A stretch of DNA of 64,000 bases from a virus. The notes under the pieces are model-generated. The model had not been told where the DNA came from, did not search any database, and saw only the letters and a list, made by a program, of their open reading frames with translations. The translations under genes were made by a program, and so were the position numbers. Positions 32,185-52,143 of this stretch are shown here, piece after piece. The stretch lies in IMG/VR virus record IMGVR_UViG_3300044630_002434, positions 1 to 64,000 of that record; one strand, given 5' to 3'. The first letter of the stretch is position 1. Each line of letters starts with the position of its first letter.

Positions 32185-32383
32185 TGTCTGGGTTTCCCTC
32201 TTTTCAGTTATACACCAACTTGGTGATAACACCATTCTATCATCTAACCTGACATTTGTCAAACACAAGTATTTACCGCGTGTCTGGTGTCAATTTGCTT
32301 TTTGTCAGGTTAATGTGGTATGCTTATCTTGTAGGACAACGAAGGGTCACACAGAAGAAAGCCTCCCGAAAGGGGGGCTTTCT

Positions 32384-32569
32384 TTATTTGTCTAGAATTC
32401 TAAATACGGGTTCGCAAGGGTCGCCACCCTCTTCAGCGTATTCCTGTTCTTCAGGTGTTAGGTAGTCCCAGCCACTATCGTGTACCGCACAATACTGTTC
32501 GCTAATCCACCCTTTTGTTATACCGAACAGCACCCATTCTGCGCGTTCATCCCATTCTTCGTCTTGCAT
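32384..32569 (-). CDS. small acidic phage protein
   Basis: WVLFGITKGWIS..YCAVHD....EEGGDPC motif. Confidence 0.65.
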   Translation of the reverse strand: MQDEEWDERAEWVLFGITKGWISEQYCAVHDSGWDYLTPEEQEYAEEGGDPCEPVFRILDK

Positions 32570-32587
32570 CTCGACCCCTTAAAAATT

Positions 32588-33148
32588 TCAGTTATCTTTA
32601 TACTGTACCGTAATGTGAATAGTTCCGCCAGTACCTGAATCCAAGTAAGACGAGATAGTTATGGCTTCCTTTAGGTAAGCCTTTGCTTCTTCCACTGTGA
32701 CCTTAGCCCCAACCATTGAATGCAATGCGCCAAGCGCGAATGATGAACCGCTACCAATACCGTAAATACCTGCAACATCTCTTGCCCAGCAGTAGTCGTT
32801 AGCAATTTCATAGACAATCCCATTGACACAAACTATGATGTCAAACTCTTGGTTTCCGTCTTTTGCGTAGCCATTTGTTTCAAAGTAGCCTCTGATTACT
32901 GGAATCAGTTTAGTAGAAACAAACTTATCGAGTTTAACTCCACTCAAGTTCTCCGCATCAGGCAAAGGAATGTCCGCAAGTAAGTTCACAGCCCTTAAAT
33001 CTCCCGCTGCGCCTACGAGATAGTTTCCGTTCTTAGATACTTTCTTTATCCCATTTGGTAAAAGATAGACTCTGTTGTCTGAGGAAATCTGAGAGTCGAA
33101 CCCAACAACCGTGAAACCCTCTCCCTGAATTGCTGCAATAGTTGTCAT
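32588..33148 (-). CDS. Ntn-hydrolase, proteasome-beta/HslV-like protease
   Basis: N-terminal MTTIAA (Thr1 nucleophile), DSQ, conserved Lys, GIGSGS, D..TGG. Confidence 0.85.
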   Translation of the reverse strand: MTTIAAIQGEGFTVVGFDSQISSDNRVYLLPNGIKKVSKNGNYLVGAAGDLRAVNLLADIPLPDAENLSGVKLDKFVSTKLIPVIRGYFETNGYAKDGNQEFDIIVCVNGIVYEIANDYCWARDVAGIYGIGSGSSFALGALHSMVGAKVTVEEAKAYLKEAITISSYLDSGTGGTIHITVQYKDN

Positions 33149-33165
33149 TGGAAAAAATTTCAGTC

Positions 33166-33432
33166 CTAAACTTCGTAGTCAATCGCGTCATCCCAAAGTA
33201 AATCTTTTAGTTCACTTTCGTATTTTGCTGAGTTCCAGCCATTAGTTTTTTCGGAGATGTCTTCCTCATCAACAATTGAATCTAAAGATAATACTGCCGT
33301 GTAGCCGTCATCCTCGAACATAACTATTAACTTGGTGTCATCTCTGTCCGCGTCATCAACAATAGCAACGACAAAGGACTCGCCCATACGATTAACGTGA
33401 TACGCGCTCTGGAGAATTTCTAATCTGCTCAT
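33166..33432 (-). CDS. hypothetical acidic protein
   Basis: 88-aa ORF. Confidence 0.6.
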   Translation of the reverse strand: MSRLEILQSAYHVNRMGESFVVAIVDDADRDDTKLIVMFEDDGYTAVLSLDSIVDEEDISEKTNGWNSAKYESELKDLLWDDAIDYEV

Positions 33433-33469
33433 AGCAAAAACATTACCGCATCCTAAGAGAGGCTATTTT

Positions 33470-33715
33470 TTACTTAGAAACCCTGCCTACATACACGGTA
33501 GTACGCCTATCGCTTAGGCTCACTACCTTGACAATCTTGCTAGTGTTGTCGAGATTAAGTTCTCTAATCAACGCACTAGCCCTTGGGTTATTGACCGTGC
33601 TAAGTTGCTTATGCGCGTAGGCAATCGCCAACCCCAAAGAGGTTTGAGTTCTACTCTCTAGGGGAGGCTTTATTTCCTTGCCCTTAGAGTTCATTAGTGT
33701 TACTGAATACTTCAT
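33470..33715 (-). CDS. hypothetical basic protein (leaderless start)
   Basis: ATG 6 nt after TAGACT -10. Confidence 0.6.
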   Translation of the reverse strand: MKYSVTLMNSKGKEIKPPLESRTQTSLGLAIAYAHKQLSTVNNPRASALIRELNLDNTSKIVKVVSLSDRRTTVYVGRVSK

Positions 33716-33741
33716 ACCTCTAGTCTACCTAAAAATTTCAG

Positions 33742-33989
33742 TTTGTCAAGTTAGTCAAAATACTCTATGACAACCGCGCCCACGAAAGAAACCGCACCAA
33801 TTACTAGAGTTGCGATTAGGTAGGTAGGTGTTATAACTACTGGCTTTAGTAATCCAATAAACATAAGTTGTAGTTCCAGTAATGCCAATGGCAATGAGCC
33901 AATAGCAACATAAGTTAGTACGGCTTGTAAGTTAAATAAAAACATCTTGCTCTCCTTTTCTTTATCGCCCCTTGCGATAACTCTATTAT
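33742..33989. repeat. 248-bp direct repeat, copy 1
   Basis: Identical by inspection to 40198-40445. Confidence 0.93.
33751..33945 (-). CDS. 64-aa two-TM membrane protein, copy 1
   Basis: MFLFNLQAVLTYVAIG...VIEYFD, AAGGAG RBS. Confidence 0.75.
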   Translation of the reverse strand: MFLFNLQAVLTYVAIGSLPLALLELQLMFIGLLKPVVITPTYLIATLVIGAVSFVGAVVIEYFD

Positions 33990-34171
33990 AACATAACTCT
34001 TTTGGCTTGTCAAGCATTACTAAACATACGGCAACATTTGATGAAACCAAGACAAATCGTCTTTAGTAATCTTTCCTAGTTTAAGACCAAGGTAGTAAAG
34101 GTCGGCAACTTTTTTCTTGTAGTTTCTATCCATAAAACTATTATAGAGTATTAACCTGACTTTGTCAAGTT

Positions 34172-34298: not shown

Positions 34299-34447
34299 CT
34301 CCTCTACTTTAGCATAAAAAAATTTCAGTTATGCTTCCGTGTCGGAATTTTTAACAATCTCCGCAGACTGACTTGCTCGAAACTTTCTTCGAGTCAAGCC
34401 CAAACCTTTTACCGCATCTCCAGCAGTTAGTAAAGATAGTCACTACT

Positions 34448-34666: not shown

Positions 34667-34985
34667 TTTGTTTCCCTTCTTTATCGCCCCTTGCGATAAC
34701 TCTATTATAGCATACTTCTTTTTAAGTTGTCAAGTTATCTAACAACCGTGCCGTTCCAGTCTGACGGTAGTAGGTATTTAGCCTTCAATGAGTCGTGACA
34801 GGTATCTACAACTATCTGACAAACATCATCTATTATGTGTTCGCCTATCCCGTCAAGGTAGGCTCTTAAATTTTCCTGCAACTGTTCTTGCAAATCTTTA
34901 ATGCTCATTTATTTCTCCTTTCATAAAAATAAATAAAAGTTCCCCGACCCTAAATTTCCAAAATTATCTAGGGGCGGGGAATTCT

Positions 34986-35510: not shown

Positions 35511-35544
35511 CCCTAGTCTATCATACTAGGTCTGCTTTCGCAAG

Positions 35545-35623
35545 TCCCAAGAGTAGGAATCGAACCTACCGTGCCAAAGCGAGTGATTTACAGTCACCTT
35601 CCCCACCTTGGGGAATCCTTGGG
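35545..35623 (-). tRNA. tRNA-Tyr(GTA), atypical, no encoded CCA
   Basis: Acceptor CCCAAGG/TCTTGGG+A, anticodon arm GGTGA-CTGTAAA-TCACT, T arm GTAGG-TTCGATT-CCTAC, 12-nt variable region. Confidence 0.8.
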
Positions 35624-35976
35624 GTTATTTAATTATGAGTCTAGTTTATCATACTAGTTATCTCTTGTCAAGTTCCTCGATTAGTCTTGTTCGGCGTACA
35701 ACATCTTTGGTACTCCAACCTTGACCAATCTCGGCGCAAGACTGTAAGTAATAATCTAAGTCTTGAATTTCATCGTGAAGTTCATTGACCGTGAGTTCTT
35801 CTACTTGTTTGTTTCTTGTAAGCATCTTTGCCCCTTTCGTTCCTCAAGTCTATAACATCTACCTGACAAATGCAAGTCACGGGGAAAGATAGTTTAACGA
35901 AGGCGGGACTCAGAATAAAAAATTTCAGTTATGCCCAAAAAAGAAACCCGCATTTCTGCGGGCTTCCATTTTTAGA

Positions 35977-36150
35977 TTAGTAGTTTTCGTTCACCCAATC
36001 CACAACGTCTTGCATTGTGTCCGCGCTACGCGCTACCGCTAGAAAGTTCTCATCTTCTAGCAATAGGTGTTCGGAAACCGTAGTTTCTCCCGCAACGAAA
36101 CCTAGTACCACTCTCAAATTTAGAGTTGTCATTAGTTGTCCTGTTGTCAT
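35977..36150 (-). CDS. hypothetical early protein
   Basis: Promoter at 36196, GAGGGG RBS. Confidence 0.6.
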   Translation of the reverse strand: MTTGQLMTTLNLRVVLGFVAGETTVSEHLLLEDENFLAVARSADTMQDVVDWVNENY

Positions 36151-36519
36151 TTTTTCACCCCTCTCCGTGTGATAACACGAGTCTATCATACCTACCTGAC
36201 AATTGCAAGCAAATAAGAAAACCCCCGTATTAACGGGGGCTTTCTCCGTATCGCTTAGGCGTAGATAACCTTAAACACTAAGTCCATAGCGTGACGCTCG
36301 GCATCTGACCAAGCACTTTCACCTCTAAACTTTTTAACTGTCTTGCCATTGACGCGAACGATACCACTCATTGAATCTGACTCAACGGTGATGCCGTGTC
36401 CATAATCTGTAGTTTCCATAACTACCCCTTTCGTTATCTCTATTGTAGCGTATTAACCTGACAAATGCAAGTCATAAAGAAAACCCCCTCCGTAGAGGGG
36501 GCTTTCCAAGGGGTTCGCG

Positions 36520-36828
36520 CTATACGTTGAATAGGTTCTGCACGGCGGTTAATGCTTTTGTATCTTTGCCACCAACGTGCCAACGGTAGTAACCGTAGTT
36601 AATTCCATTTTCGTAGTTCTTCCAATCGTAGATACTCGCGACAAAAACCTCGCCAGTTTCTTCATCTTCAAACTTTAGTAACCATTCTGCCTGTACCTTA
36701 TCTTCGGGGTATCCCGTGTAGTGAGGTTCTCCCAACTTTTCTACAATAGTTGCGTAGGTTGTATTGACGTACCCAACTAATGAAGTTCCGCTTATGTCTA
36801 CAGAATTACTTTTCTCTATAAGTTTCAT
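36520..36828 (-). CDS. conserved phage hypothetical protein
   Basis: GTSLVGY..TTY..IVEKLGEP..DKVQAEW...IYDWK..WHVGG. Confidence 0.75.
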   Translation of the reverse strand: MKLIEKSNSVDISGTSLVGYVNTTYATIVEKLGEPHYTGYPEDKVQAEWLLKFEDEETGEVFVASIYDWKNYENGINYGYYRWHVGGKDTKALTAVQNLFNV

Positions 36829-36984
36829 TTTTTCTCCTTTTCGTGGCATCTCCACTACCTAAAGTAAACCATACAACCTGACCTTTGTCAAGTTGTGCAA
36901 ACTCCCGCGCGTCCCTAAAAAATTTCAGTTTTAAGTTCCCGCGCAAAAAATAATCCGCCCCGTAGGGCGGACCATTTTTGTAGG

Positions 36985-37458
36985 TTAGAATCTGCGAGCG
37001 CAGACTGGACCAATACCGCGAGCAACCGAAACCTCATCAGTTAGTTCACGACCGCAAGCGACACACACGCCAAACTGCAAACCGTAGTCGCAAGCCTGTT
37101 CAAGAGTCATCTTGTCATTAGCCGAGATAGCGCGAATGTAACTAGGGTCATACTGGAATGACCCCCCAACCAATTTGGTTGCGTATGGGCGACCTGACGA
37201 CTGCGAAATTTTAACGCGGTAGACAACGCCCTCCTTAAAGTAAACGCCGACCTCAAGCGCGACAACTGGCGCGGTAGTGCGTGACTCGCGCGGTGCGTAT
37301 GGAAACGACCGCAGGGTGTCAATGAGGGTACTGGCTTCGCGCTTGGATAGCACGGTGATGTCGCCAATGGTGGCGCGGAATGTGTCCGAAACTTCGCGTG
37401 ACGCGAGCAGGGACTGGGCATACGAGATTTGGCTCTCGGTGGCTTGTGTTGTGTTCAT
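36985..37458 (-). CDS. DUF6011-like Zn-finger protein
   Basis: CVACGRELTDEVSVARGIGPVC C-terminus. Confidence 0.8.
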   Translation of the reverse strand: MNTTQATESQISYAQSLLASREVSDTFRATIGDITVLSKREASTLIDTLRSFPYAPRESRTTAPVVALEVGVYFKEGVVYRVKISQSSGRPYATKLVGGSFQYDPSYIRAISANDKMTLEQACDYGLQFGVCVACGRELTDEVSVARGIGPVCARRF

Positions 37459-37640
37459 AGAACAACACTATCAAGTAACCTGACAAAAGTCAAGCGAAGA
37501 ACTCAGAACTATTTTTTCCGGGCTGAGCCTGGCAAAAAGCCTGGCGACAAAACTGAAATTTTTTACCCCGCGCAAAATTAAAAAATTAAAACCAAAAACC
37601 CCCAGCGATTTGCTAGGGGTCATTGGCTAGGGGTTATTCG

Positions 37641-37865
37641 TTAAGCACTTATCTTTTCGCCGAGATAGATTTCTAACTCCGTGCTGTTTTCTCTTGTCTT
37701 TCGGTCTAGAACTTCTTGAACTTCGTCAAGAGATTTTCCAAACTCATACGACACGGTAAGAATTGCAGACAATACGCCGTATTCGTTTGTGTCTAGGCTT
37801 GGGTACTTTGCTATGTGCAAAGCATTGTAAGACTTTAGAAAGTCTTGAGTATTTAGTGTTTTCAC
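37641..37865 (-). CDS. hypothetical early protein
   Basis: GTG start after AAGGAG; promoter at 37924. Confidence 0.6.
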   Translation of the reverse strand: MKTLNTQDFLKSYNALHIAKYPSLDTNEYGVLSAILTVSYEFGKSLDEVQEVLDRKTRENSTELEIYLGEKISA

Positions 37866-37973
37866 TTCATTCTCCTTTTTAGTTGCCCTTTGCAACTTCA
37901 TAAAACAATCATAACACACTTGTCTGACAAATGCAAGTAAGGTGCGCCAGCCGTAGCCAGCGCACCCGTGAAC

Positions 37974-38318
37974 TTAAACGGCTAACCCAAATTCCTTTAG
38001 GAACTCTAATTGCTTTTGGGTGAGTCCAGTAGTTTCGCCCTCTCCGTCATTAGATGTAAGAAATACATCTCCAACGATTATGTCCGTACCAATTCCGTAC
38101 TTGTCCCAGAATAGGTTAGTGGCAATTCTGTTTGGCTCAAGTCCAATTAGTTTGCCTTCCTCGTTTAGCCATAGGTCAATGTCCTCGCCTACAACCGCGC
38201 ACTCAATCCAACCATTGACCGCGTTACGAATTACCTCGTAAGACTCGCCAACTGTGAACTCACGAGTTTCAACTGTGCCATCTACTCCAATGAATAGACC
38301 CTTTGCTTTGTCGCTCAT
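37974..38318 (-). CDS. DUF3846-like protein
   Basis: AVNGWIE...LWLNEEGKLIGLEPNRIAT...DIIVGDV. Confidence 0.8.
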   Translation of the reverse strand: MSDKAKGLFIGVDGTVETREFTVGESYEVIRNAVNGWIECAVVGEDIDLWLNEEGKLIGLEPNRIATNLFWDKYGIGTDIIVGDVFLTSNDGEGETTGLTQKQLEFLKEFGLAV

Positions 38319-38576
38319 CTCTTCCCTTTCTTTGTGGTATTTCCACTAATAGAAATAATACCACATCTCCCTGACATTTGCAAGTTAATTTTTCCGTGTG
38401 GGTTTCCGACCTAAAAAATTTCAGTTATCTAACTCAGCGCAAAAATTATTCTTCTATCGAATCAAAATAGTTGTTCACATCAACGATTGAGCAAGGTTCG
38501 CATTGCTCATAGTCACCATCAAGGCTGAACTTGTCTAGCGCATTACCGCACTCAATGCAAAGTTTTAATTCGTTCA

Positions 38577-38765
38577 TTACGCACCCCCTAATTCAGTTTC
38601 GAACTCGTATAAATCTTCGTCGTGTTCTGGACAGACCGCGTAGTAACCTTTGGTCACATCTTCGAAACTAACTTCAGTCTTGCAACGAGCGCAAACAACG
38701 CTTTCATCTTCGCCTAGTGCTTCTTCCGCACCGCGTAGTAACCATTCATCAAATCCTTGTAGCAC
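38577..38765 (-). CDS. small Cys-containing protein
   Basis: CARC...YYAVCPEHDEDLYEFE. Confidence 0.6.
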   Translation of the reverse strand: MLQGFDEWLLRGAEEALGEDESVVCARCKTEVSFEDVTKGYYAVCPEHDEDLYEFETELGGA

Positions 38766-38872
38766 TTTGCTACCTCCCTTTCTTGTATTTCTATTGTAGC
38801 GCATTAGTCTGACATTTGCAAGTAACCGCGCAAAAAGAAAGAGCGAGCCTTTCGGCTCGCCCCTCCTAGAGT

Positions 38873-39283
38873 TTAGTAACTCGCGTGAGTTCGATTAGAA
38901 CCTAAGTCACTAGCAAGTTCGTAAATGTGGTCAATGTTAATTGTCCGACTCTCGCCCTTGTTGTTGTACGCAGTAGCATCACCCGTAAAGTAGCGATACT
39001 TCTCGTAACCATTAGTAATGATTACCGCGACCCAATCATCTTGCAAGTGACGCTTAAATACATCAGCCCAGTCAATCTCGTCAAACTCTTCTGTTTCGTC
39101 ATTGTAGATTGACCAAATTTCTCCAGAACCATCATCATCATTGTCAAGAAATCCGTAAAGTGTTACGCCATCTTTCTCTTGAGTAATTACCTTTACAGGG
39201 TAGTTCTCAAGTTCTGCTGTAAACGCTTCCGCATCTTTTACCGCAAAGTAGTTGCTTCGCGTCTGTCCGTAGTAATTAGCCAT
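38873..39283 (-). CDS. conserved phage hypothetical protein
   Basis: MANYYGQTRSNYFAVKD..GYEKYRY. Confidence 0.75.
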   Translation of the reverse strand: MANYYGQTRSNYFAVKDAEAFTAELENYPVKVITQEKDGVTLYGFLDNDDDGSGEIWSIYNDETEEFDEIDWADVFKRHLQDDWVAVIITNGYEKYRYFTGDATAYNNKGESRTINIDHIYELASDLGSNRTHASY

Positions 39284-39353
39284 TTGGCTGTCCCTTCCGC
39301 AAGTAAGCCCTTCTCACTCGCTGTATCTATTATTTCTTATTACCTAACATTTG

Positions 39354-39656
39354 TCAAGTTGATTTAATAATTACGAGTCCCGTGTCCTGCGTTTCAAGTC
39401 CATAGCCCTCAGACAGTTCTTCTTCTAGCCATTGAGTTGAGTAATCAAAAACATAAAACAAATCTCTTTGCATTTCTTCGTCTGACTCTCCCGCAAAAAA
39501 ATTCAGTTTATCTTCTTCCCAGATTTCGGTGTTGATGTCATACCCATACTTCATAGCAAGTTCGACTACCGCAATCTGAAACCTGATGTGCGGGTCAGGT
39601 AGTTCACTCTCGTACCTAACCCACACGCCTAAGTCTTTCTCTGTGACCTTAATCAA
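39354..39656 (-). CDS. hypothetical acidic protein
   Basis: 100-aa ORF overlapping upstream gene. Confidence 0.6.
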   Translation of the reverse strand: MIKVTEKDLGVWVRYESELPDPHIRFQIAVVELAMKYGYDINTEIWEEDKLNFFAGESDEEMQRDLFYVFDYSTQWLEEELSEGYGLETQDTGLVIIKST

Positions 39657-39909
39657 CTCTTACTTCTTTCTCTCCTTGTAGTAATCCGCAAGACGAGCAA
39701 GGATAGTCGTCAATGTTGATGTCGTACACAAATCGGTGTTCGCAGTCTACACGCCAAATACCGTAGCACTCACAAACAAAACAACGGTGCTTGTCCTCGC
39801 CAAGTTCGATTACTTCATCTCGCTGGATAATCCAATTACAATCATCACACCGAAAAGATTTCACTTTTTCGTTCGAGTTGTTGCTGACAAAAATCCACTC
39901 TTCTGCCAT
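39649..39909 (-). CDS. Cys-rich protein
   Basis: Three CxxC pairs. Confidence 0.6.
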   Translation of the reverse strand: MAEEWIFVSNNSNEKVKSFRCDDCNWIIQRDEVIELGEDKHRCFVCECYGIWRVDCEHRFVYDINIDDYPCSSCGLLQGEKEVRVD

Positions 39910-40136
39910 TAGAACACTCTCCCGTACTCGTTCATAACTACTCCCCCGCCACCGCTAGGTGATGTAACTTCCCATTGTTCGTATGGTGTTGGGTCGTAAT
40001 TATCTCGGCACTCTTTACACCACAGAATGTCCATTCTGTCGTACTTCTCAAACATTTCCACTTTTGGGAAATCTTGTTCGCAGTCCACGCAGAAATCGTT
40101 TTCTGCTGGTATCTCAATTCCAAGCCATTGTGTCAT
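39909..40136 (-). CDS. small CxxC..CxxC protein
   Basis: MTQWLG start after AAGGGAG. Confidence 0.6.
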   Translation of the reverse strand: MTQWLGIEIPAENDFCVDCEQDFPKVEMFEKYDRMDILWCKECRDNYDPTPYEQWEVTSPSGGGGVVMNEYGRVF

Positions 40137-40197
40137 TTTGTTCTCCCTTTTCTTTATCGCCCTTTGCGATAGTTCTATCTTACGGACTTTTCTAACT

Positions 40198-40445: not shown

Positions 40446-40771
40446 TCCATAAGGATTGACATTTGTCAAGCCTAGTTCGCTTCCGCGATAGCGTGTCGGC
40501 GTTGGGCAGACCTATCGCGGTTACGGCGTGTACGCCTATCCGCAAACTTTGCAGACTTCTGGTTTAGGACATAGTGTCCCGAACCTGTCACTAGATTGTC
40601 TAGTGGACTCTTGCGCTTAGCCATCTCTGACTCCTTTCAATAAATCTATTGTAGCACACTTCCCTGACATTTGTAAAATTACCCGCGCAAACTTTTAGTA
40701 AAAAATTTCAGTTATGAATTTTAAGAAAAAAGAAAACCTCGCCCTTTCGGGTGAGGCTCTCTTTCTACCTA

Positions 40772-40975: not shown

Positions 40976-41412
40976 TTTGTTCTCCCTCTATCAGTCACTC
41001 CCTGCAACTTGATAAATCAAGTTTAACATACTTACCTGACATTTGTCAAGTCACCGCGTGTTCGGCGTGTCGCAATTTTGTAGCACCCCTTTCCCTAAAA
41101 AATTTCAGTTATGAAAATAAGAAAACCCCACCTTTCGGTGGGGCTTTCCTTTGGTGGCTACTTACTTGGGTGACGGTGCATAGCCGAGTGAAGGTTGAGA
41201 TAACCCAACACATCATTACGAGTTAGGACTTCGCGACCCTGCGAGCAGGTTGGGCAGATAACTAACTTGCCTAGTCCTAGTGAAACTAGTGTGCGCTTTA
41301 GTGTATTCACGCTTTTCTCCTTTCCTTATGTAATAATTGTATCATACCTTTATGACATTTTCTGTATTTCGAGAAAATAAACCCCGCCCGTAGGCGGGGC
41401 TTATTTTAGTGG

Positions 41413-41604: not shown

Positions 41605-41758
41605 TTGTGTCCTCCCTTCCGTTAAAACTATTCTAGCGTACTTACCTGACATTATCAAGTTAAACGCCAATTTATTTTTTTCCTCGTGTTCATAACTGAA
41701 ATTTTTTAGCGAGGCGACAAAAAAATCCGCGCAATCTTCCGCGCGGGCTTCTTTGTGT

Positions 41759-42034: not shown

Positions 42035-42157
42035 TTTGTTCCCTTTCTTTTGCAACTCCCTGTTGCTAGTACCTAGCGTACACTACTTCCCTGACATTTG
42101 CAAGTTGAAAGGGGGGCGAGTTTCCCCGCCCCCTTTTCGTGCGCCCCTTAGCGCGGA

Positions 42158-42631: not shown

Positions 42632-43031
42632 TTTAGTTTTCTCCTTCTTGTTCTTCGATTACTTCTACATAAACTTCGTCTTTTTTGTAGGTTTCAATTT
42701 CAGAGAAGAAACGATTTTTAACTTCAATTTCTATCTCTTGGTCGGTAAGGTTTTCACCTTTTATTTCAATGGTGATACTAGCCGTACAGATGTAGGTAGT
42801 CATTGTATTTCCCTTCTGTAAGCAAGTCCCTCTTGCCTACTCTGTAAGTGTATCATACTACTCTGACATTTTCAACTTGAACGCGAAACTATTTTTTCCG
42901 CGCCCGCCCCCGTAAAAAATTTCAGTTTTGAAAAATAGAGAAAGCGCGAATCTCTCCGCGCTCTCTCATTTGTTATTCGACTTCATTATCCGTAAGGATT
43001 TGCTCTACTAAATACTCAACCGTGTATTCTA

Positions 43032-43328: not shown

Positions 43329-43422
43329 TTTGTTTCCCTTCTTAGAGTGAGTCCCTCTCGCTCTATGATAAGTATACGCCCCTAGCCTGACATTTGTCAA
43401 ATCAGGGGCGCATACCGCGTGT

Positions 43423-44059: not shown

Positions 44060-44239
44060 TTTTTTCCCTTCTCGGTAAGTCCCTCTCACCAATAACTCTA
44101 TAATACACTACTAGCCTGACATACGCAAGTCGAACACGAAATTATCTTTTCCCGCGCCTTCGCTGAGTCCGCCAGAAAAAATTTCAGTTATCGCTAAACC
44201 AAGAAACCCCTAGCCTTTCGGCTAGAGGCATCTTTTGGA

Positions 44240-44416
44240 TTAAGCGGTGATGAGTCCCTCATCTATCAAGGTGCTGGCAATCCTGCCGTAAGAACCTTGC
44301 AGTTGCCACGCTAGTCGCGTATCAACTAGTTTCTGAAACAAGTCAATCGTTTCTTCTCTGTCGAGAGTTCCTTCCTCAAACGCGATAATGAGGTTTGTTA
44401 TGTTGTCTAGTGACAT
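44240..44416 (-). CDS. conserved small phage protein
   Basis: LFQKLVDT.LAWQLQGSYGR.A..LI..GLI. Confidence 0.75.
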   Translation of the reverse strand: MSLDNITNLIIAFEEGTLDREETIDLFQKLVDTRLAWQLQGSYGRIASTLIDEGLITA

Positions 44417-44509
44417 TTGCTTCCCTTTCGTATTCGCCGTACTTCGGCTTATGTAATAAGGATACACTAAACCCCTGACATTTGTCAAGGGCTTAGTGTC
44501 CCTGCGTGT

Positions 44510-44791
44510 TTAGGCTACTTCTTCTTCTTCGGCATCAGGGCAAGTAACGCGCCCCCAATAAACGATTGTGTCGTACCCCATTGAGTCGGTACTGCTGTTG
44601 CTGATTAGTTCATCGCGCAGTTCCTCATCTTCTACTAGGCGTGAGATTGCTACGCCAAGTTCTAACAGATTGTGCGCCACAATACCTACGCAACTATCGC
44701 CGAACATTCCGCGCCCTGAATAATCGGCGCGTACACTTCCTTCAACTTCTTGAGCAATTTCTTCAAGTAGTTCGAGTGAGATTGTAAACAT
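44510..44791 (-). CDS. conserved phage hypothetical protein
   Basis: DYSGRGMFGDSCVGIV...DSMG...IVYW. Confidence 0.75.
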   Translation of the reverse strand: MFTISLELLEEIAQEVEGSVRADYSGRGMFGDSCVGIVAHNLLELGVAISRLVEDEELRDELISNSSTDSMGYDTIVYWGRVTCPDAEEEEVA

Positions 44792-44951
44792 CTTGCTCTC
44801 CTTCTATCAGTAAGTCCTTCTTGCTGATAAAACTATTATAACATACTTCCCTGACATTTGCAAATTAAGATTTTTAGCGCGTGTCGCCCTAAAAAATTTC
44901 AGTTTTGCCAAACAAAAAAATCCGCGCACTTGGCGCGGACTTTTTGTGAGG

Positions 44952-45263
44952 TTAGCGTTTCGAGCATTCCTCGTCGTGTTCAATTTCGCCCTCGTACTTG
45001 TCTGTTATTGAGTAACACTCTTGACAAGTTTCTATTGGCATCAACTTGTATTTGTAAACCGCGCTGGCTTCGTTATCGTCCAGTAGCGACTCCGCGATTT
45101 CGTCTGTCCAGTTCCACCACTTGCTAATAATGCTTTCGGCATCTGCGTATTCGTTGTGCTGTAAGTCGAAAGCAAACTTGCCAACTACTGTCGCAAACCT
45201 AATTGAATCCATTTCGGCTATTGCGTGGTACATACGCCTTGCGTTAATTGTTTCTCGACTCAT
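44952..45263 (-). CDS. hypothetical protein
   Basis: Promoter at 45321, AAGGGA RBS. Confidence 0.6.
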   Translation of the reverse strand: MSRETINARRMYHAIAEMDSIRFATVVGKFAFDLQHNEYADAESIISKWWNWTDEIAESLLDDNEASAVYKYKLMPIETCQECYSITDKYEGEIEHDEECSKR

Positions 45264-45355
45264 TTGAGTCCCCTTTCGTTTTGTCGTATTTCGACTATGA
45301 GATAAGGTTACACCCAACCCCTGACATTTGTCAAGGGCTGGGCTAACCTGCGTGT

Positions 45356-45670
45356 TTAGAGATTATTTAGTTCTATGTATTCGTAGGCTTTCTCGAAAGA
45401 CTTGACGACACTTTCTCTAGTTGCATCTAAGTCCTCAACAATAAAGTCCAGATACTTTTCATTAGCGTGGTCAATCAGGTAAGCAACATACTTTCCTGTA
45501 TCTGGGTTTTGGTTGAAACAAAACTCAAGCCCATCTTTTGGAAACGCGCTGGCTATGTAGCCAACCCCTGCGTCAAAGGTGTAAGCCATAAAACGAGGGT
45601 CAGTAATGCTTGCTAATAGTTCGCGCTGGTCTTTTGCATCTTGCGTTATGTAATCTGCGTGAGTATTCAC
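45356..45670 (-). CDS. hypothetical protein
   Basis: Promoter at 45734. Confidence 0.6.
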   Translation of the reverse strand: MNTHADYITQDAKDQRELLASITDPRFMAYTFDAGVGYIASAFPKDGLEFCFNQNPDTGKYVAYLIDHANEKYLDFIVEDLDATRESVVKSFEKAYEYIELNNL

Positions 45671-45906
45671 TTTGAGTGTTTATCCTTTTCTGTTAGTGAC
45701 TTTCACCAACAAGTACCACTTTAGCAGATTACCCTGACATTTCCAAATCGAGATTTTTGATGCGTGTTGCGGTAAAAAATTTCAGTTTTGCGCAAACGAA
45801 AACCCGCACCGAAAAAATTTCAGTACGGGCTTCGCTTAGAAACTGTCGGAAGGCTGACACACGCTGGAAGGACGATACCCCCCGACAGGGCTTATGGGTT
45901 ATTCAA

Positions 45907-47715
45907 TTATCCGTTACGGTTTCCCATAGCGGTTAGTGCTTTCGCACACGCTTGTCCGATAGCGTTGGACGCTTCCGTTGGAGAAGTCACTCCGCTTAAC
46001 GGCTCTACCGTTGTCCCCCTTAGGAGACTTCTGGCACTAGACCCGTTGTCGAACGGTATCCATACTACCGCAACGCCGTTACTCTCACATTGCGACACCC
46101 AACTCCTTGCTTTCTGGGACTCCTCATAGGTGAACACGCCGTCCGATACCACAACTAGAAGCCTAGCACCGTCGCCGTTAAGCAGATTTAACTCGCCGTC
46201 TACTGCCTTGAACGCCTTGTCAAACTTTTCAGTTCCGTCTGGCGCTGTGTAGACCGTTACATCCGTTAGGTGCTGACCACTCTTAAGGGTAGGGAACACA
46301 TCGTCACCGTAGTAAACCATCGCGCACTTACCTTGCACTCGCCGAGTTGCTTCCGACATTACCCACGCCGTTGTCGCCATCGGTTGCATAGCCGAGTTCA
46401 TCGAACCGCTAATGTCTACCAGCACGCCGACCTTTAGTGTTGGCTCGTCCGTTGTCTTGCGGACTCGCTTACGCCAAGGTTGCGCCGTTGGTTGCACGCC
46501 GATTGATTTGTGCGCTTCGTTCTGGATAGCCGAGCGAGTTCGTAGCCGTCCACCGGGGACAATGCTACGCACTTCGATAACATCGCGCTCGCGATACTTC
46601 GCACGCTCTAGTGCGCTCGCCACTTTCACCGCGCTAATGCGCTCGTCTGCCGTAGGCTTGCGAACCTCTATTGCGCGACTACGAGTACGGCTAGAGTCTG
46701 ATGGACCAGTGCCACGCCCGAAAACTTCTTGAGCAACTTTAATGTTCTCACGACTTTGCTTTGCACTGTCCGCGCGATTCTTAACTTCGTCTTTCCATTC
46801 CTCTGACTCCTCTTGGTCAGCAAGTTCGGAGTAGTTAGATACCGCAACATTGTCAGATGCTTCTTTCAACCTCTCAAGTAATTCTTTTAGTGCTTCACCA
46901 ATTTCAGATGTGGATTCGCCACTGCCACCAGAAGTGCTTTCGCTACCAGACGTATCCTCGCCACGTTCGTTTGCAAGGTCACGAATAATCTGTGCCCACT
47001 CACGCGCTAGAGGATAAACAGGTTCTAGGTTTCTGTGGTCTGTGTGTGTAATGAAACGCTCGATAACATTAGATAACTTTTCAACAGTTTCGTTGCCTAA
47101 GTATTCCTCTACAAAATCTGTAACTTCTAGAACATCATCGCGCTCTAAGATTCCACCAATGATTCGACCATGCACTAGTCCAACTAAAGTTGCAATGTTT
47201 GAAACAGTGCCTTGCGTTAAATCTGATGATTCAAAATCTGCGATAACAATTTCCATCGCGCTTGAGCGTAGGAATGCGCGATACCTAGCATCAAGCAAAA
47301 TACCTTGTGCTTCGATTCGTGTTTCCTCGAGTAGCATTAGTGCTTCGTATTCGTCTGACTTTAATGCGTCATAAGCAGACTCTAGACTCCACTTTGAGAA
47401 CCGCGCGTGAAATGCTTCGTGCATCACTGCGCCAGTAGCCTTTGGGAATTCGTACTGCGTTGAGCGTTCGTTGATGTCGCCAATGTGTTCTGGCTTAATG
47501 CCAAACCCAAAAGCAATTTCTGTGTTTACTTCAATCTCTGCAATCGCTGGTTTGTAGCACGCTGGCGCATTGCTACCTGCAACAGGAGATGCAAGCCCAA
47601 CTAAATCGCTACGACCTGCTACGCCATTTGCTAGTTGTGCAATCTGCGAACCAACTGCGTACCATTCTGGATGTCTATCTCCAGAAGTCTTACTATGTGT
47701 GTCAATGTGTGCCAT
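45907..47715 (-). CDS. VWA domain protein with N-terminal HExxH (CobT-like)
   Basis: HEAFH, LEETRIE, MIDAS DISGSM, GTE, VVSDG. Confidence 0.85.
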   Translation of the reverse strand: MAHIDTHSKTSGDRHPEWYAVGSQIAQLANGVAGRSDLVGLASPVAGSNAPACYKPAIAEIEVNTEIAFGFGIKPEHIGDINERSTQYEFPKATGAVMHEAFHARFSKWSLESAYDALKSDEYEALMLLEETRIEAQGILLDARYRAFLRSSAMEIVIADFESSDLTQGTVSNIATLVGLVHGRIIGGILERDDVLEVTDFVEEYLGNETVEKLSNVIERFITHTDHRNLEPVYPLAREWAQIIRDLANERGEDTSGSESTSGGSGESTSEIGEALKELLERLKEASDNVAVSNYSELADQEESEEWKDEVKNRADSAKQSRENIKVAQEVFGRGTGPSDSSRTRSRAIEVRKPTADERISAVKVASALERAKYRERDVIEVRSIVPGGRLRTRSAIQNEAHKSIGVQPTAQPWRKRVRKTTDEPTLKVGVLVDISGSMNSAMQPMATTAWVMSEATRRVQGKCAMVYYGDDVFPTLKSGQHLTDVTVYTAPDGTEKFDKAFKAVDGELNLLNGDGARLLVVVSDGVFTYEESQKARSWVSQCESNGVAVVWIPFDNGSSARSLLRGTTVEPLSGVTSPTEASNAIGQACAKALTAMGNRNG

Positions 47716-47849
47716 CTCTGGCTCCTTCCTTTGTACGCCCCTTTGACGTACTCTGTGAGTTTATCATACCTTTCTGGAATCTCCAAATTGGGGTAGGGGA
47801 GTCGGAAAACACTCACGAAAACCGACTCCCCCTTTAGCAAGGAAAGGGA

Positions 47850-48881
47850 CTAAATCCTTGCTGGCTTATACTCCGCACCAAACACTCGCGACAAAACATC
47901 TGCCACGATTGGTCTGTCCATCTCTGGTGCAGAAGCAAGTAAGTTCGAGATACCAAACGGAACCCCGAATGTTGTAACGATGTCGCGAAACGCTAGGAGT
48001 TCGCGCATCTGTGGAGCCCAAGATACTTCACCAGACTCTTGCTTCTTAGCAAGGTTCTGCGCAACAGTAACTAGGTTGCTAGGTACACCTAAGGTGCGAG
48101 CAAGTGACCAGTCAGTTGCCATCTCTGCTTGAACAGTAAAGCGAGATAGTAACGCTTCTGAAAGTCGTACCCCCGGAGCATTAGGGTTAGTTGCGCCCAC
48201 GACATAGAAGTCAGGGTGAACCTTGACAGTACCTCTATCTGGATTAGCAGTAACAGTAATTTCGCCACGTCCATCCATTGCGCCATACAAACCTGAAAGT
48301 TGCTTAGGGTCAATCAGACCAATTTCGTCAATAAACAAAACCGCACCTTCCTCTGCTGCTCGTACAAGTGGACCATCTACCCACTCGAAACCACCTGATG
48401 GATTCTGTACGAAACCACCAAGGAAGTCTGACATTTCAATGTCAGCAGTTCCAAGCACTGTGTACATGTTTCCAGCAAACGCTGCTTCGACTAATGCAGT
48501 CTTACCAGTTCCCGGTGCGCCATAAAGCAACGCGAACATTGGCGAACCAACTTTGTCTGTAACAGCCAAGGTAGTTGCTTCACGAGCCTTGCGTAGTGTC
48601 GCAACATCTTGATGCTCGCCCCAAGTTCGAGCGTGGTACACACTTCCATTTGGGCGAGTGTATTGACTACCACTTGACTCAAGTGTTACACCTGATGTTG
48701 TGATTGGTGTCGCTACGCGAGCCACGCGAGGTGCGCGTTCTACGAAACGACCTTGTGGTGATACCTGCGAGATTACTCTCATAGATGCTTCTGGTGATAC
48801 TGACTGCGCAACCATGTCGTCTAACATGGAAGTGAATTCAGTTCCCCACTTTGAATAAATTTCATTTTCTTTGATGCTCAT
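47850..48881 (-). CDS. MoxR/CbbQ/CobS-type AAA+ ATPase
   Basis: GAPGTGKT Walker A, WVDGPL, LFIDEI Walker B, ATNP, LSEALLSRF. Confidence 0.9.
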   Translation of the reverse strand: MSIKENEIYSKWGTEFTSMLDDMVAQSVSPEASMRVISQVSPQGRFVERAPRVARVATPITTSGVTLESSGSQYTRPNGSVYHARTWGEHQDVATLRKAREATTLAVTDKVGSPMFALLYGAPGTGKTALVEAAFAGNMYTVLGTADIEMSDFLGGFVQNPSGGFEWVDGPLVRAAEEGAVLFIDEIGLIDPKQLSGLYGAMDGRGEITVTANPDRGTVKVHPDFYVVGATNPNAPGVRLSEALLSRFTVQAEMATDWSLARTLGVPSNLVTVAQNLAKKQESGEVSWAPQMRELLAFRDIVTTFGVPFGISNLLASAPEMDRPIVADVLSRVFGAEYKPARI

Positions 48882-48897
48882 AATTTTCAGTCCCTTT

Positions 48898-49365
48898 CTA
48901 CGCTGTGAACATTTCTGGATAAGATAATGCAGTTCGAGTCTGATTGATTCGATGCACGACCTTAGTTGGAGTCTTGCTGTTTGTTACGTCAGTCAAGTCT
49001 TTCTGTGAAACTTCCACAAAAAATGGCTTGCCAACGATTGTGCTACTAATTGAAACGCGCTTCATAAGCCACGCTAGTGTCTCAATTCGTCCCTCGCGAT
49101 GTTCATCTGATGTAGACCCTGTTACTGGGTCAACAAGTTGACGCTGGAGTGTTTGTATTTTCCATTGCTTCTTTGGTTGTGAAACCGAAAGACGACGATA
49201 GTAAGCACGTGCTATTGAGAAATTTCCATGTTCGTTCCAACCATCTGGTGTAATGAACATCTGAAAAATCTGATGGTATTCATTTTTGAATTCCACATAC
49301 AAGGCAGTGCCTTGTACTTTCTTTTCTGGGTCTGTAAGCAGACCAAGAGGTGTTTCTAGTGACAT
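48898..49365 (-). CDS. hypothetical protein in AAA-VWA operon
   Basis: ORF directly upstream of the ATPase. Confidence 0.6.
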   Translation of the reverse strand: MSLETPLGLLTDPEKKVQGTALYVEFKNEYHQIFQMFITPDGWNEHGNFSIARAYYRRLSVSQPKKQWKIQTLQRQLVDPVTGSTSDEHREGRIETLAWLMKRVSISSTIVGKPFFVEVSQKDLTDVTNSKTPTKVVHRINQTRTALSYPEMFTA

Positions 49366-49487
49366 GAGTGTTTCCTTCCCTTTATGTCTTTGTCCCTGTG
49401 ACAAGTCTTACTTTAGCATAACTCTATGATGTAGTCAAATCGGGGTAGGAGTTTTTCTAAGGAGACCTACCCCGACCTGACCCCTAA

Positions 49488-49820
49488 CTACTTAGCGACA
49501 ATGATGTCGTAAGTAGAAACCTTGGCGCATTGTTCATACGCTTCGGGGTTCGACAACTTCAACTTCTCGGAGTCGATAGTCGTGCGAGAGCGTGGTGCGA
49601 GTTCAACCACTGGTAAACCCTTGACAGTACCTGTCTTGGCTGAACCAATGAGTTCGCGAATAGCATTGTCAATTTCTGACTTTGCCTTTTCGAGTTCCTT
49701 GATTGCAAGTTTTGCGTTAGCAAAATCTGCAAGCAGGTTCGCGATGTTGGTGTCGTCCAATTCAACAGTGGACGTTTCTGTGACAACCTGTGTTGTCGTT
49801 ACCTGTGTGCGTATGCTCAC
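49488..49820 (-). CDS. coiled-coil protein resembling the C-terminal part of YqaJ-type phage proteins
   Basis: IKELEKAKSEI...RTTIDSEKLK...PEAYE. Confidence 0.5.
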   Translation of the reverse strand: MSIRTQVTTTQVVTETSTVELDDTNIANLLADFANAKLAIKELEKAKSEIDNAIRELIGSAKTGTVKGLPVVELAPRSRTTIDSEKLKLSNPEAYEQCAKVSTYDIIVAK

Positions 49821-50133
49821 TTTGGCGATTCCCCTTTCAGGAGTATTCGATAGACCATCTAACGAACAGTTGCAACTTTACACGATGTCCCTGACATTTG
49901 TCAAATCGAGCGTGTCCACCCCAATTTCTTGGGCTGTTTCGTTCATAGAACCAATGTAACACACGAACCTGACAAAGCGCAACTTATTTAGATAACGATT
50001 TGATAACGGACCCGGAAATAAAAAATTTCAGTTCTGGGTTGTTGGAGGCAGGCTTCAATAAAAAATTTCAGTTTTAGGCAAAAAGAAACCCCCGTCCGAA
50101 ACTCGCTGGTTTCGATTTAACGGGGGCTAATCT

Positions 50134-50331
50134 TTATGGGGTTTCTAGTTCTTGTTCCCACTTTATGGTGTCGTACATTCCCCAGATTTCATCATCTGTG
50201 AAGTTCTCGTGCAACCAGATAGAGGCGCGAGTCTGGGTTACTGGGTTTTCGTCTACTGGCTTAGCAGTTCCGAAGATGCTACCCATAAGGGCGTTGTATG
50301 CGTGTGCGTTTGCTTCATGCGGTTTGTTCAT
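50134..50331 (-). CDS. hypothetical protein
   Basis: ATGA coupling to the glycosylase gene. Confidence 0.55.
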   Translation of the reverse strand: MNKPHEANAHAYNALMGSIFGTAKPVDENPVTQTRASIWLHENFTDDEIWGMYDTIKWEQELETP

Positions 50332-50792
50332 ACTCCTACGGTAACACGAGGCACTGACATTTCTTCAGGTGTCCAAATGTAGGGGAGGTCACTTGGCGTA
50401 TCAGAAAAAAATTCAGAATAATACTCAGGTGCTTTCCGTAAAAGATTCGAACGGTGTGATTCGTGGAACGCTAGGTTTCCGATGAACCACGGCAAGCCTT
50501 CGTACCGCTTACCTTCGACCGTCAGTTCTCGCATCCGTTGCACGAAGTACGGTAACAGGTTGTCCACGTATCCGCGACTCTTCCACTCCGACGACATCGC
50601 TGAACCGTAGTACGCGAGCACGAACTCGTAACCCGTCCACATCTTGGTCGCGGGATGGTTCACCCATCCCTTGGTCTCGCCGTTAAGTGCCATCAGTATC
50701 TGCTTGGTCTCTACCCGTTGCTTCCCAAGCCGTCGGTAGTCCAATACGCTCGCCGTCTTCTCGAAGTCCGCGTATGGCAGGAACGTCTGCAT
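50328..50792 (-). CDS. pyrimidine-dimer DNA glycosylase family (MSMEG_6728/endonuclease V-like)
   Basis: MQTFLPY..F...A..LD..RLGKQRVE..QI, HPA..MW.G, HESHRSNLLRK, LPYIW. Confidence 0.88.
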   Translation of the reverse strand: MQTFLPYADFEKTASVLDYRRLGKQRVETKQILMALNGETKGWVNHPATKMWTGYEFVLAYYGSAMSSEWKSRGYVDNLLPYFVQRMRELTVEGKRYEGLPWFIGNLAFHESHRSNLLRKAPEYYSEFFSDTPSDLPYIWTPEEMSVPRVTVGV

Positions 50793-50977
50793 TAGCGCTC
50801 GCCGTTCTCTCGAACTAGCGCGATTGCTCTCGCCATGCCTGCAGACCATCCGTCGTTGAACGCGACATCCACTTCGTTCTCTTCTTCAGCGTCCGTCATG
50901 TCTTCTTCGGTTACCCGTTCCCACTCCTCCATTAAAATTTCTAACAGCGTCATGCGGTCACGCCCGCCAACTTCCAC
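50792..50977 (-). CDS. hypothetical protein
   Basis: Coupled ORF. Confidence 0.5.
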   Translation of the reverse strand: MEVGGRDRMTLLEILMEEWERVTEEDMTDAEEENEVDVAFNDGWSAGMARAIALVRENGER

Positions 50978-51189
50978 GCCTTCTTTAGGTCGCGGTCGAA
51001 GTCGCGTTGCAGTTTAGCCCACGCCGTTTCGTCAAAAAGAATTGGGTGGACCTCTTGCTTGTTTCGGTTAAGTACTCGCCGTATAAAAGATTTCAGTTCT
51101 GTGTAGTTCATGTTTTGGTTCCTCCTTTGCCAAGCAAGGCACGCCGTGTGCCTCGCCGTCTTGATGTATTAACTTTATGATAAAAGTTT

Positions 51190-51474
51190 TTAGATGTCAA
51201 GCGCGTACTCTGGAAGTTCTAGACCTGCTCCGTTTAACGCTCGCCGTATTAAACCTTGCTGACGCGAGGTTGTCTGCGAGTATTTACCTACGTTCAGATA
51301 AGTAACCTGACGTTTTTCTGTGTTTACACTAGCCATCCGTGTTGAGTACGAGTAGATGTCGTAGATGATGTCGCCACTGGCATCAGACCACTTAGAGGCT
51401 TTCATGCTGTGACCGTGCTTGAATGGTTTAAACGCTGGAATAAATTCTTCTGCAATTTCTTTGTAACTAGGCAT
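51190..51474 (-). CDS. conserved phage hypothetical protein
   Basis: IYSYST.MA...KYSQTTSRQQ. Confidence 0.75.
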   Translation of the reverse strand: MPSYKEIAEEFIPAFKPFKHGHSMKASKWSDASGDIIYDIYSYSTRMASVNTEKRQVTYLNVGKYSQTTSRQQGLIRRALNGAGLELPEYALDI

Positions 51475-51560
51475 TTCTTAGTTCCCTTCTGTTGACGTGT
51501 CTCATCAACAAGAGCAACTCTATCATACCAACCTGACATCCGTCAACTCAGGGCACGCCG

Positions 51561-51908
51561 TTAAATTTCTTCAGGGTCAAGGTCAAAAAGATTTTCTTCG
51601 ACCATTCCCCAGAAAGTTTCGAAGGTCTTGGACTTCTCTTGAAGTTCCTCAATCGGTTCGTTGTACTCAACAACCGTTAGTTCAGGAACATGGTCCTCTT
51701 CGGGTTCGATGTGGTGGCTTTGGTAAATGTAGTCTCCGTCTTCGGTAATCAGGTACATGATTACGTACGCGCCACATTCGTTCTCGAATATGACTTGGTA
51801 CATTTTGGTCAACGGGTCGTAGATAGGGCATGACACAGAAAGCATGTCGTGCATGTAGGTCCCTTTGTGGATGATACGGCTTGGGTGAATCTTGTGGCGT
51901 TTGTTCAT
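51561..51908 (-). CDS. hypothetical protein (leaderless start)
   Basis: ATG just after -10 of promoter at 51931. Confidence 0.6.
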   Translation of the reverse strand: MNKRHKIHPSRIIHKGTYMHDMLSVSCPIYDPLTKMYQVIFENECGAYVIMYLITEDGDYIYQSHHIEPEEDHVPELTVVEYNEPIEELQEKSKTFETFWGMVEENLFDLDPEEI

Positions 51909-52143
51909 ACCAGCAGTATTGCACGCCTGCCTGACATTTGCAAATCGGTCGGGGGCACGCCGTCATAAAAAATTTCAGTTTTTAATTTGCACGGATGGAT
52001 TTTACGGACCCCTCCCGGAAAATATAAAAAGGAGGCGGGTGTGGCCTGGCGGCTTCTTCCAGGCTCAGCGGCTATCCGTTTAAAAAATTACGTCGACAAT
52101 CAGTGCGGCTATGAGAAGCGCTCCAAGTAGCGCGAATGGAAAC

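Follow-up and report, generated by a model that had tools for sequence, protein, structure and literature searches.

The first 64,000 bases of the IMG/VR virus record IMGVR_UViG_3300044630_002434 (hereafter the window) carry a class of promoters in which the hexamer TGTCAG stands exactly 10 nucleotides (nt) ahead of a TAnnnT -10 element, the layout of the promoters that the WYL-type damage sensor PafBC controls in actinobacteria. The record (119,711 bases, 89% complete) comes from a lytic-looking phage of 43% G+C found in lake-water metagenomes, an actinophage by its two WhiB genes and its DUF3039 gene. At about twenty of its early-gene promoters the PafBC box stands precisely in place, so the phage probably uses the host DNA-damage alarm to switch on its own genes; judging from sequence, we hold with moderate confidence that host PafBC reads the box of these promoters. 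The promoter class itself is known; what is new here is that a virus carries the PafBC box, many times over and together with a -35 element. In the literature covered, which did not extend to subscription journals, we came across no phage with PafBC-type promoters; PMC12848934 cites a 2025 paper in ACS Infect Dis that concerns pafBC and resistance to mycobacteriophages.

In the window, TGTCAG-N10-TAnnnT occurs 23 times, against 0.62 expected from dinucleotide-preserving shuffles (standard deviation 0.84, maximum 3), and 0 of 100 such shuffles reached 23. The full record holds 25 matches, 2 forward and 23 reverse, and the reversed pattern, run as a control over the same 119,711 bases, gives 0 on each strand. 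Counted by the distance from box to -10, this genome has 23 boxes at N10, 3 at N9 and 0 at N11. An earlier note on this DNA (the original prediction) had claimed at least 21 promoters with exactly 10 nt between TGTCAG and TAnnnT, and 21 of the window matches indeed stand in promoter context: 20 on the minus strand (35,847-51,538) and one on the plus strand (32,303), all of them with TGTCAG. A further box promoter lies beyond the window at 65,046(-). The window sites are listed here with their -10 hexamers, followed by two variants of the box.

35847..35868, minus strand: box promoter, TAGACT; preceded by cTTGCATT, start codon 21 nt downstream
36180..36201, minus strand: box promoter, TAGACT; directly downstream of a terminator hairpin (36246-36215)
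36442..36463, minus strand: box promoter, TACAAT; directly downstream of a terminator hairpin (36499-36484); second example of the original prediction
37908..37929, minus strand: box promoter, TATGAT
38355..38376, minus strand: box promoter, TATTAT; ahead of a DUF3846 gene (37977-38318)
38793..38814, minus strand: box promoter, TACAAT
40648..40669, minus strand: box promoter, TACAAT
41020..41041, minus strand: box promoter, TAAACT; TTGACA -35 at 18 base pairs (bp), TGACA-AA-TGTCA palindrome
41630..41651, minus strand: box promoter, TAGAAT
42075..42096, minus strand: box promoter, TACGCT
42847..42868, minus strand: box promoter, TACACT
43371..43392, minus strand: box promoter, TATACT; TTGACA -35, within a longer inverted repeat
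44100..44121, minus strand: box promoter, TATTAT; ahead of a DpnD/PcfM-like gene
44459..44480, minus strand: box promoter, TATCCT; TTGACA -35, at the centre of a 16-pair inverted repeat (44499-44464), ahead of a DUF7417 gene
44835..44856, minus strand: box promoter, consensus TATAAT; first example of the original prediction
45305..45326, minus strand: box promoter, TAACCT; TTGACA -35
45718..45739, minus strand: box promoter, TAAAGT
49875..49896, minus strand: box promoter, TAAAGT; TTGACA -35, heads an operon of an AAA_5 ATPase (47853-48881) and a 602-residue partner (45910-47715)
49953..49974, minus strand: box promoter, TACATT; in tandem, 78 nt upstream of the 49896 site
51517..51538, minus strand: box promoter, TAGAGT; first promoter upstream of the gene run that includes a glycosylase
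32303..32324, plus strand: the sole plus-strand box promoter, TATGCT; strong terminator hairpin at 32354-32385
34140..34161, minus strand: box variant AGTCAG-N10-TATAAT; TTGACA -35
32234..32262, minus strand: box variant TTGACA..TGTCAG-N9-TAGAAT, spacing 9; the left boundary of the region in the original prediction

Matches at 50338..50359(-), within the glycosylase open reading frame (ORF), and at 10421..10442(+), on the opposite strand of a 4,119-residue ORF, come without the flanking consensus and were taken as chance. The match at 88,797-88,818(-) was rejected as a promoter: it lies in an SNF2 helicase gene, and because its 22-mer recurs in many contigs (G001, G051, G052, G055, G056, G060, G065, G084-G087 and G091), varying only at every third base, we regard it as a conserved coding motif that mimics the pattern.

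Over the 21 sites the consensus reads cTTG(a)CAAA-TGTCAGG-nnAgTatGn-TAnAnT. If the -10 is placed at -12 to -7, the box occupies -28 to -23, which in position and in sequence is exactly the -26 element of PafBC promoters. According to PMC8635444, this element, from -23 to -28, is contacted by the helix-turn-helix (HTH) of PafB, its conserved GTC triplet is read by PafB R46 and R50, the in vivo consensus is tGTCgg(N10)tA(N3)T, and the promoters are without a -35, with PafBC located between the DNA and sigma region 4. The earlier identification of TGTCAG-N10-TAnnnT as the PafBC signature is borne out against that consensus in sequence, in the rigid spacing and in a tolerance centred on GTC. The phage promoters are intergenic, and for 16 of the 20 on the minus strand the distance from the end of the site to a called start codon with a Shine-Dalgarno sequence is 21-47 nt. 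At sites 41041, 42868 and 49896 the start of an ORF that our crude gene caller passed over lies 43-54 nt downstream. In most copies an A-tract lies just upstream of the box, and TGn before the -10 is frequent.

Is the box a selected element or a bystander of the promoters that carry it? The comparative evidence, comprising spacing, tolerance and constraint against a close relative, leads us to regard it as a discrete, selected element tied to the -10 and not as a passenger of gene cassettes, and its origin by chance appears unlikely. Aligning the AAA ATPase yielded 73 related IMG/VR loci; the 72 of them numbered L015-L086 reduce to 55 once redundancy is removed. Those 55 contain 97 N10 matches on the gene strand against 4 on the other, with 7 at N9 and 6 at N11. 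Among 240 permutations of the same letters, TGTCAG comes first (78) and TGTCGG second (19), the next reaching 10 and the median standing at 2. Variants at GTC, positions 2-4, occur at background (0-5 against 0-5), and these are the sole intolerant positions; position 5 is A in 78 cases, G in 19, T in 12 and C in 5, and positions 1 and 6 are looser. Because only positions 2-4 are intolerant, the tolerance profile in relatives mirrors the published GTC readout.

The elements around the box are far less constant across these phages. The N10 spacers are unrelated between lineages and the -35 is optional, with 35 of the 97 sites matching TTGACA at 5-6 of 6 positions and 39 resembling it no more closely than random sequence does (3 of 6 or fewer). 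At least three sites are present in 14 of the 55 loci, and counts over whole records, cluster strand first and other strand second, are 20/3 in G001, 19/3 in G061, 11/0 in G084, 8/1 in G087, 8/0 in G094, 6/0 in G095 and 6/1 in G085, with controls of 0-2. To the close relative G001, which is 94-97% identical, 11 of 20 promoters can be aligned; across these, 1 of 66 box positions differs, compared with 22 of 110 in the spacer, 10 of 88 in the -35 region and 109 of 1,130 in the flanks (Fisher p for the box of 1.6e-4 against the spacer, 0.024 against the -35 region and 0.025 against the flanks). The box promoter at 45718..45739, compared with a strain about 90% identical, has differing flanks and 0 differences within its 22 nt, among the 40 of 1,206 differences listed. 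In a quick tree of the ATPase, box lineages sit on both deep branches, interleaved with box-free lineages.

These patterns bear on two explanations that would leave PafBC out. According to the first, the promoters are plain sigma-A promoters and TGTCAGG is a readerless passenger of promoter-gene cassettes that were duplicated and shuffled. Sub-families of the promoters do share long flanks, the -35 and TGn/-10 look enough by themselves, and a strain variant from a lake run, about 90-95% identical, lacks whole cassettes, with joints between neighbouring promoters at 36214>36477, 42633>42808 and 33993>34160; it seems that genes are gained and lost by recombination at the recurring promoters. Against this, the box is conserved in the alignment with G001 even as spacer and -35 region drift, relatives with unrelated spacers and without a -35 retain it at N10 only, and high-scoring promoter-like sites have either an intact box or unrelated sequence in its place, with few intermediates. 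We consider a readerless passenger very unlikely.

The second explanation, which the original prediction had itself set up as the refuting case, makes the box one half of a symmetric operator, TGACA-N2-TGTCA, on which a dimeric repressor covers the -35. Perfect TGACA-AA-TGTCA stands at five sites (41041, 43392, 44480, 45326 and 49896), of which 43392, 44480 and 45326 lie within longer inverted repeats, and PMC10693628 describes a mycobacterial WYL regulator, SiwR, that binds a palindrome between -35 and -10. The second half-site, however, is confined to 5 of the 22 sites here and, among relatives, to 16 of 97, and TTGC replaces the left half at ten sites here. Moreover, the right half has stayed fixed, the left half has changed as fast as the background, and the spacing is set to the -10 and not to the centre of symmetry. 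An operator half-site is, to our mind, scarcely probable.

The reading by host PafBC calls for a host that has both the activator and the box. As candidate hosts we used five lake actinobacterial genomes reached through a DUF3039 search, with the proviso that the true host of the phage may differ. Adjacent WYL ORFs of about 320 residues each are present in four of the five: a Nanopelagicaceae metagenome-assembled genome (MAG), two Rhodoluna and another MAG. The Nanopelagicaceae pair (G002) consists of a PafB-like protein (PDB 7p5x chain AY, E 4e-36), in which the RMFERDK stretch with R46/R50 is identical, and an HTH_PafC-domain protein. The box is present as well: in 29 of 30 loci sampled from the Nanopelagicaceae, nGTCRG-N10-TAnnnT is found within the 500 nt that precede the recA P-loop codon, mostly as CGTC(A/G)GTGG..TACCTT, and the Rhodoluna recA promoter reads TGTCGGTAG-..-TA(T/A)TGT. 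Position 1 is variable in these host recA boxes too, as in the AGTCAG variant at 34161 of the phage. Other boxes in the candidate hosts precede LysM, DUF6504 and UvrD genes and an HTH gene next to recA, and several are followed by TCGAAC-N4-GTTCGA, which we take to be the actinobacterial LexA box. Among them two LysM promoters come near the phage layout, with cTTGACAAAA-TGTCGG in Rhodoluna and cTTGCCGA-TGTCAG in Nanopelagicaceae. Raw matches to the pattern number 5-17 per candidate genome (controls 0-7), which is fewer than in this one phage. At position 5 of the box, G prevails among the Rhodoluna matches, and A among those Nanopelagicaceae matches that two genomes have in common.

In the mechanism that we envisage, the box promoters would be sigma-A promoters of a lytic lake actinophage that have incorporated the -26 element of the host's PafBC. 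PafBC would be constitutively present in the host, and single-stranded DNA (ssDNA) from infection, phage replication or ultraviolet (UV) damage would load it, ssDNA being the activating signal according to the abstract of PMC11804915. Once loaded, PafBC would bind the GTC core through the PafB HTH and bridge to region 4 of sigma-A, the sigma adaptation described for RecA-NDp/PafBC promoters (PMC8635444, PMC6789036 and PMC11804915). The PafBC-loaded polymerase would then fire the approximately 21 promoters, each serving one small early gene or short operon between 35.8 and 51.5 kb, and one such operon holds a UV-dimer glycosylase. Because most of the phage promoters keep a -35-like hexamer, and often TGn, they may well be dual-mode: plain sigma-A holoenzyme would use them too, and PafBC on sigma region 4 would blind the polymerase to ordinary -35 promoters while those of the phage stay usable or are even boosted. 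PafBC binding, activation by infection or UV, the timing of these genes and the identity of the host are what we infer here from the DNA.

A number of findings weigh against this proposal. Attention fell on the box through its likeness to a known motif, which calls for some look-elsewhere discount. At the promoters themselves, TTGACA or TTGCAA provides a -35-like hexamer at 17-18 bp in most copies here, so that the missing -35 of the PafBC class is seen at the 39 of 97 sites in relatives mentioned above and not at most sites of this phage. The three bases after the box are GGA, GTT or GTA here, compared with mostly TGG, GGG or AGG in host sites and other phages, and the combined layout TTG-N5-TGTCRG-N10-TAnnnT is rare in the candidate-host family, with 6 matches in 41 genomes against 3 for the control. 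The search with DUF3039 returned 80 loci that are about 44-64% identical, the best cellular ones at only about 50%, and because they are spread over many actinobacterial families no host can be named from them; a histone-deacetylase query against genome contigs confirmed no relative. The ssDNA that PafBC needs may be absent at the very start of infection. The RNA data consist of one run, in which the stretch is present as a few short contigs with start sites that are not readable.

Further points on the same side concern the other promoters of this phage and the distribution of the box. About ten box-free promoter-like sites between 30 and 41 kb emerged from a hexamer-masked matrix scan and an independent sigma-70 scan, for example at 34733-34704, 34013-33985 and 35671-35643. 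TGTCAG had been claimed to be constant, and this is so within the box class and fails for these sites. Their presence alongside the box promoters means that the phage has at least two promoter classes. Among relatives, DSL-LC01, which is syntenic in this region, has 0 box matches and uses GATTCTAAAGnTGTTATAAT, with about 24-30 copies of GATTCTAAAGnTGTTATAATnGAATC; one clade uses CCTGATATAAT as its promoter type. Four cultured Microbacterium and Gordonia relatives have 0-2 matches, and 1 of 37 WhiB-bearing viral contigs of at least 20 kb is enriched in the box, most of these contigs being fragments of 15-35% completeness. The trait is confined to a lineage, as expected of a phage-specific factor.

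Such a factor would be a phage-encoded DNA-binding protein unrelated to PafBC that reads TGTCRG, either as an early-made activator of a middle class or as a shut-off repressor, and its target would in that case resemble the PafBC box by accident or in order to compete with PafBC. The restriction of the box to part of one phage group, whose syntenic relatives use other conserved boxes, fits this explanation, as do the dozens of small ORFs without a known family; the box-free class with near-perfect TTGACA/TATAAT in the same region could be the true immediate-early class. Nevertheless, a random 6-mer would match TGTCRG at exactly N10 about once in 2,000, and the intolerance at GTC alone would be needed in addition. 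The box also lies on both deep branches of the quick ATPase tree, with box-free lineages between. The one protein that we considered as a reader, a conserved 155-residue protein resembling HTH_23 and sigma region 4, was dropped: 13 of 15 records have it, irrespective of promoter type. A reader of WYL type encoded by the phage, the other option of the original prediction, gains no support: with matches accepted up to E 1, PF13280 picked out no WYL domain in the record (119.7 kb, 89% complete), and phmmer with PafB and PafC queries from a lake actinobacterium against 1,210 six-frame ORFs found no homologue (best E 1.2). On balance we regard a phage protein of this kind as unlikely and continue to favour PafBC of the host.

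The genes behind the box promoters form a leftward block of small ORFs, mostly of no known family or with DUFs only, which also holds the AAA_5 ATPase with its 602-residue partner and the UV-repair glycosylase that had been noted in this region:

50331..50792, minus strand: pyrimidine-dimer DNA glycosylase gene (Pyr_excise, E 7e-22)

As to DNA-repair genes, one operon downstream of the box promoters contains this glycosylase; the other downstream genes are small ORFs with no known family or DUFs only. Elsewhere the phage has genes for terminase, a primase-helicase, PolA, ThyX, class II ribonucleotide reductase and tail proteins, together with members of the DUF6011 and DUF3846 families. No integrase or repressor was seen in the phage, and nothing in the phage collection matched 40-46 kb by megablast.

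The box-free class is represented by the following site.

34704..34733, minus strand: box-free promoter, TTGACA-18-TATAAT, followed by the hairpin TTATCGCAAGGGGCGATAA

Perfect TTGACA/TATAAT promoters came up three times in the masked-matrix and sigma-70 scans (34733-34704, 34168-34140 and 34013-33985), and such box-free promoters with consensus hexamers may belong to a temporal class of their own. A family among them, TTGACA-17/18-TATAAT (or AATAAT/TAAGAT), runs immediately into AGAG and the hairpin TTATCGCAAGGGGCGATAA. The hairpin occurs four times in minus-strand transcripts (33955-33984, 34681-34699, 40154-40172 and 40418-40436), one copy with a fold z of -5.5. A tRNA-Tyr (GTA) gene at 35544-35623(-) lies among the early cassettes, and a box-free promoter-like site (about 35552-35515) overlaps its 3' end.

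The leaders of the box promoters have features of their own. Most (e.g., 44792-44828, 43329-43364 and 42035-42068, minus strand) begin with a short hairpin and continue with a Shine-Dalgarno sequence; the loops are often (A)GAGGGAC or GGGAG and the fold z ranges from -1.5 to -5.7, and these hairpins are possible 5' stabilisers or regulator sites. On the plus strand (32303-32395), a 14-pair terminator hairpin (z -5.6) follows the box promoter after about 30 nt, the promoter being divergent from the minus-strand one at 32262-32234. With the terminator so close behind, an RNA of about 60 nt is expected, possibly a small RNA; an Rfam search of 30-54 kb matched no family. Upstream of several boxes (e.g., 44856, 44480, 43392 and 41041), a motif (A/G)ACACGC(C) lies at 15-56 nt, often between a T-tract and an A-tract, and it is also found upstream of promoters in the relatives L053, L056, L058, L072, L075 and L084. 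ACACG is present, at variable distance, in 21 of 97 regions upstream of the relatives' boxes against 116 of 2,000 random 70-nt windows.

Other phages of the group repeat short motifs of their own in the syntenic early region. GATTCTAAAGnTGTTATAATnGAATC, an early-promoter box, is present at 7-24 copies per locus in L009 (DSL-LC01), L033, L034 and L078, and a second such box, (A)CCTGATATAAT(T/A), at 7-17 copies per locus in L032, L036-L048 and L076. Further repeats, namely gAGGTAAAAAAT, GTATCCACTTTTT and, after a T-rich stretch, GTATT(T/C)ATTTTTTC, are distributed over L015, L019-L029, L046, L056-L058, L068, L077 and L081-L083. Outside the block of box promoters, the window holds an RNase_T-type exonuclease domain at residues 1556-1721 of the 4,119-residue ORF (10401-22757, minus strand), a ferritin-like domain at residues 1244-1385 of a 1,709-residue ORF (3868-8994, minus), a histone-deacetylase-family protein (30472-31413, minus, E 2e-52), a dual-specificity phosphatase (31417-31920, minus) and a Mom-family protein (59405-60076, plus, E 3e-40). 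A proteasome/HslV-like match at 32591-32989(-) is weak (E 4e-4, below the cut-off); the annotation in DSL-LC01 is an HslV-like subunit.

How far might the use of PafBC by phages extend? We raise as a tentative and rather doubtful possibility that the whole group of 110-150 kb lake actinophages uses host PafBC as a transcription switch, with 6-25 promoters per genome. In this wider proposal, which we hold equally tentatively in its second part, ssDNA arising from infection or from UV in surface water would load PafBC, the phage promoters, which keep a -35 besides the box, would fire in both polymerase states, and the replicating genome, because it has more boxes than a candidate host chromosome, would soak up PafBC and so starve the damage and defence regulon of the host. 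PafBC and sigma adaptation have so far been described as a host damage response. If host PafBC does read the phage boxes, a WYL damage sensor would be exploitable by a virus and would not just guard against viruses, and in freshwater bacteria of very high abundance the expression of phage genes would be linked to UV and DNA-damage stress. The group would also offer a natural set of about 100 varied PafBC-type promoters, some having a -35 and some lacking it, on which sigma adaptation could be dissected.

Several known systems invite comparison. The cassettes of this phage recall the PeSL cassettes of T4-type phages, in which a terminator hairpin, a strong early promoter and a small gene are repeated and serve as recombination points; PeSL promoters are plain sigma-70 promoters and have no borrowed activator box. 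The stoperators of L5 and Bxb1 are likewise short asymmetric sites, repeated more than 20 times in the same orientation in an actinophage genome, the L5 site containing TGTCAAG. They are repressor sites of temperate phages and keep no fixed distance to a -10, unlike the phage box with its rigid spacing in a genome where neither repressor nor integrase was seen. SiwR, according to PMC10693628, is a WYL activator of fast-growing mycobacteria and acts between -35 and -10, as PafBC is proposed to do here; unlike the phage box class, its site is palindromic and its control is limited to a few adjacent genes.

The promoters of the PafBC damage regulon share with those of the phage TGTC(A/G)G at -28 to -23, exactly 10 nt to a TAnnnT -10, an intolerant GTC core, a non-palindromic site and an actinobacterial setting. 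The phage promoters differ in lying on a lytic phage genome and not in the host's damage regulon, in their density (about 22 copies in 120 kb against the raw matches per 0.9-1.4 Mb of candidate host genome given above), in the -35-like hexamer and A-tract that most copies add just upstream, and in the small ORFs of no known family that mostly lie downstream. The middle promoters of T4 combine a MotA box at -30 with AsiA in what is called sigma appropriation, both factors being encoded by the phage. As in T4, the -10 is kept, an activator box replaces or overrides recognition of the -35 by remodelling sigma region 4, and a multi-copy class of promoters serves a temporal set of phage genes; unlike in T4, a phage factor was not found here and the box is the host's own. 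An analogy between PafBC and MotA/AsiA is also drawn in PMC8635444. If PafBC does read these promoters, they would be the host-factor counterpart of the take-over that T4 achieves with MotA and AsiA.

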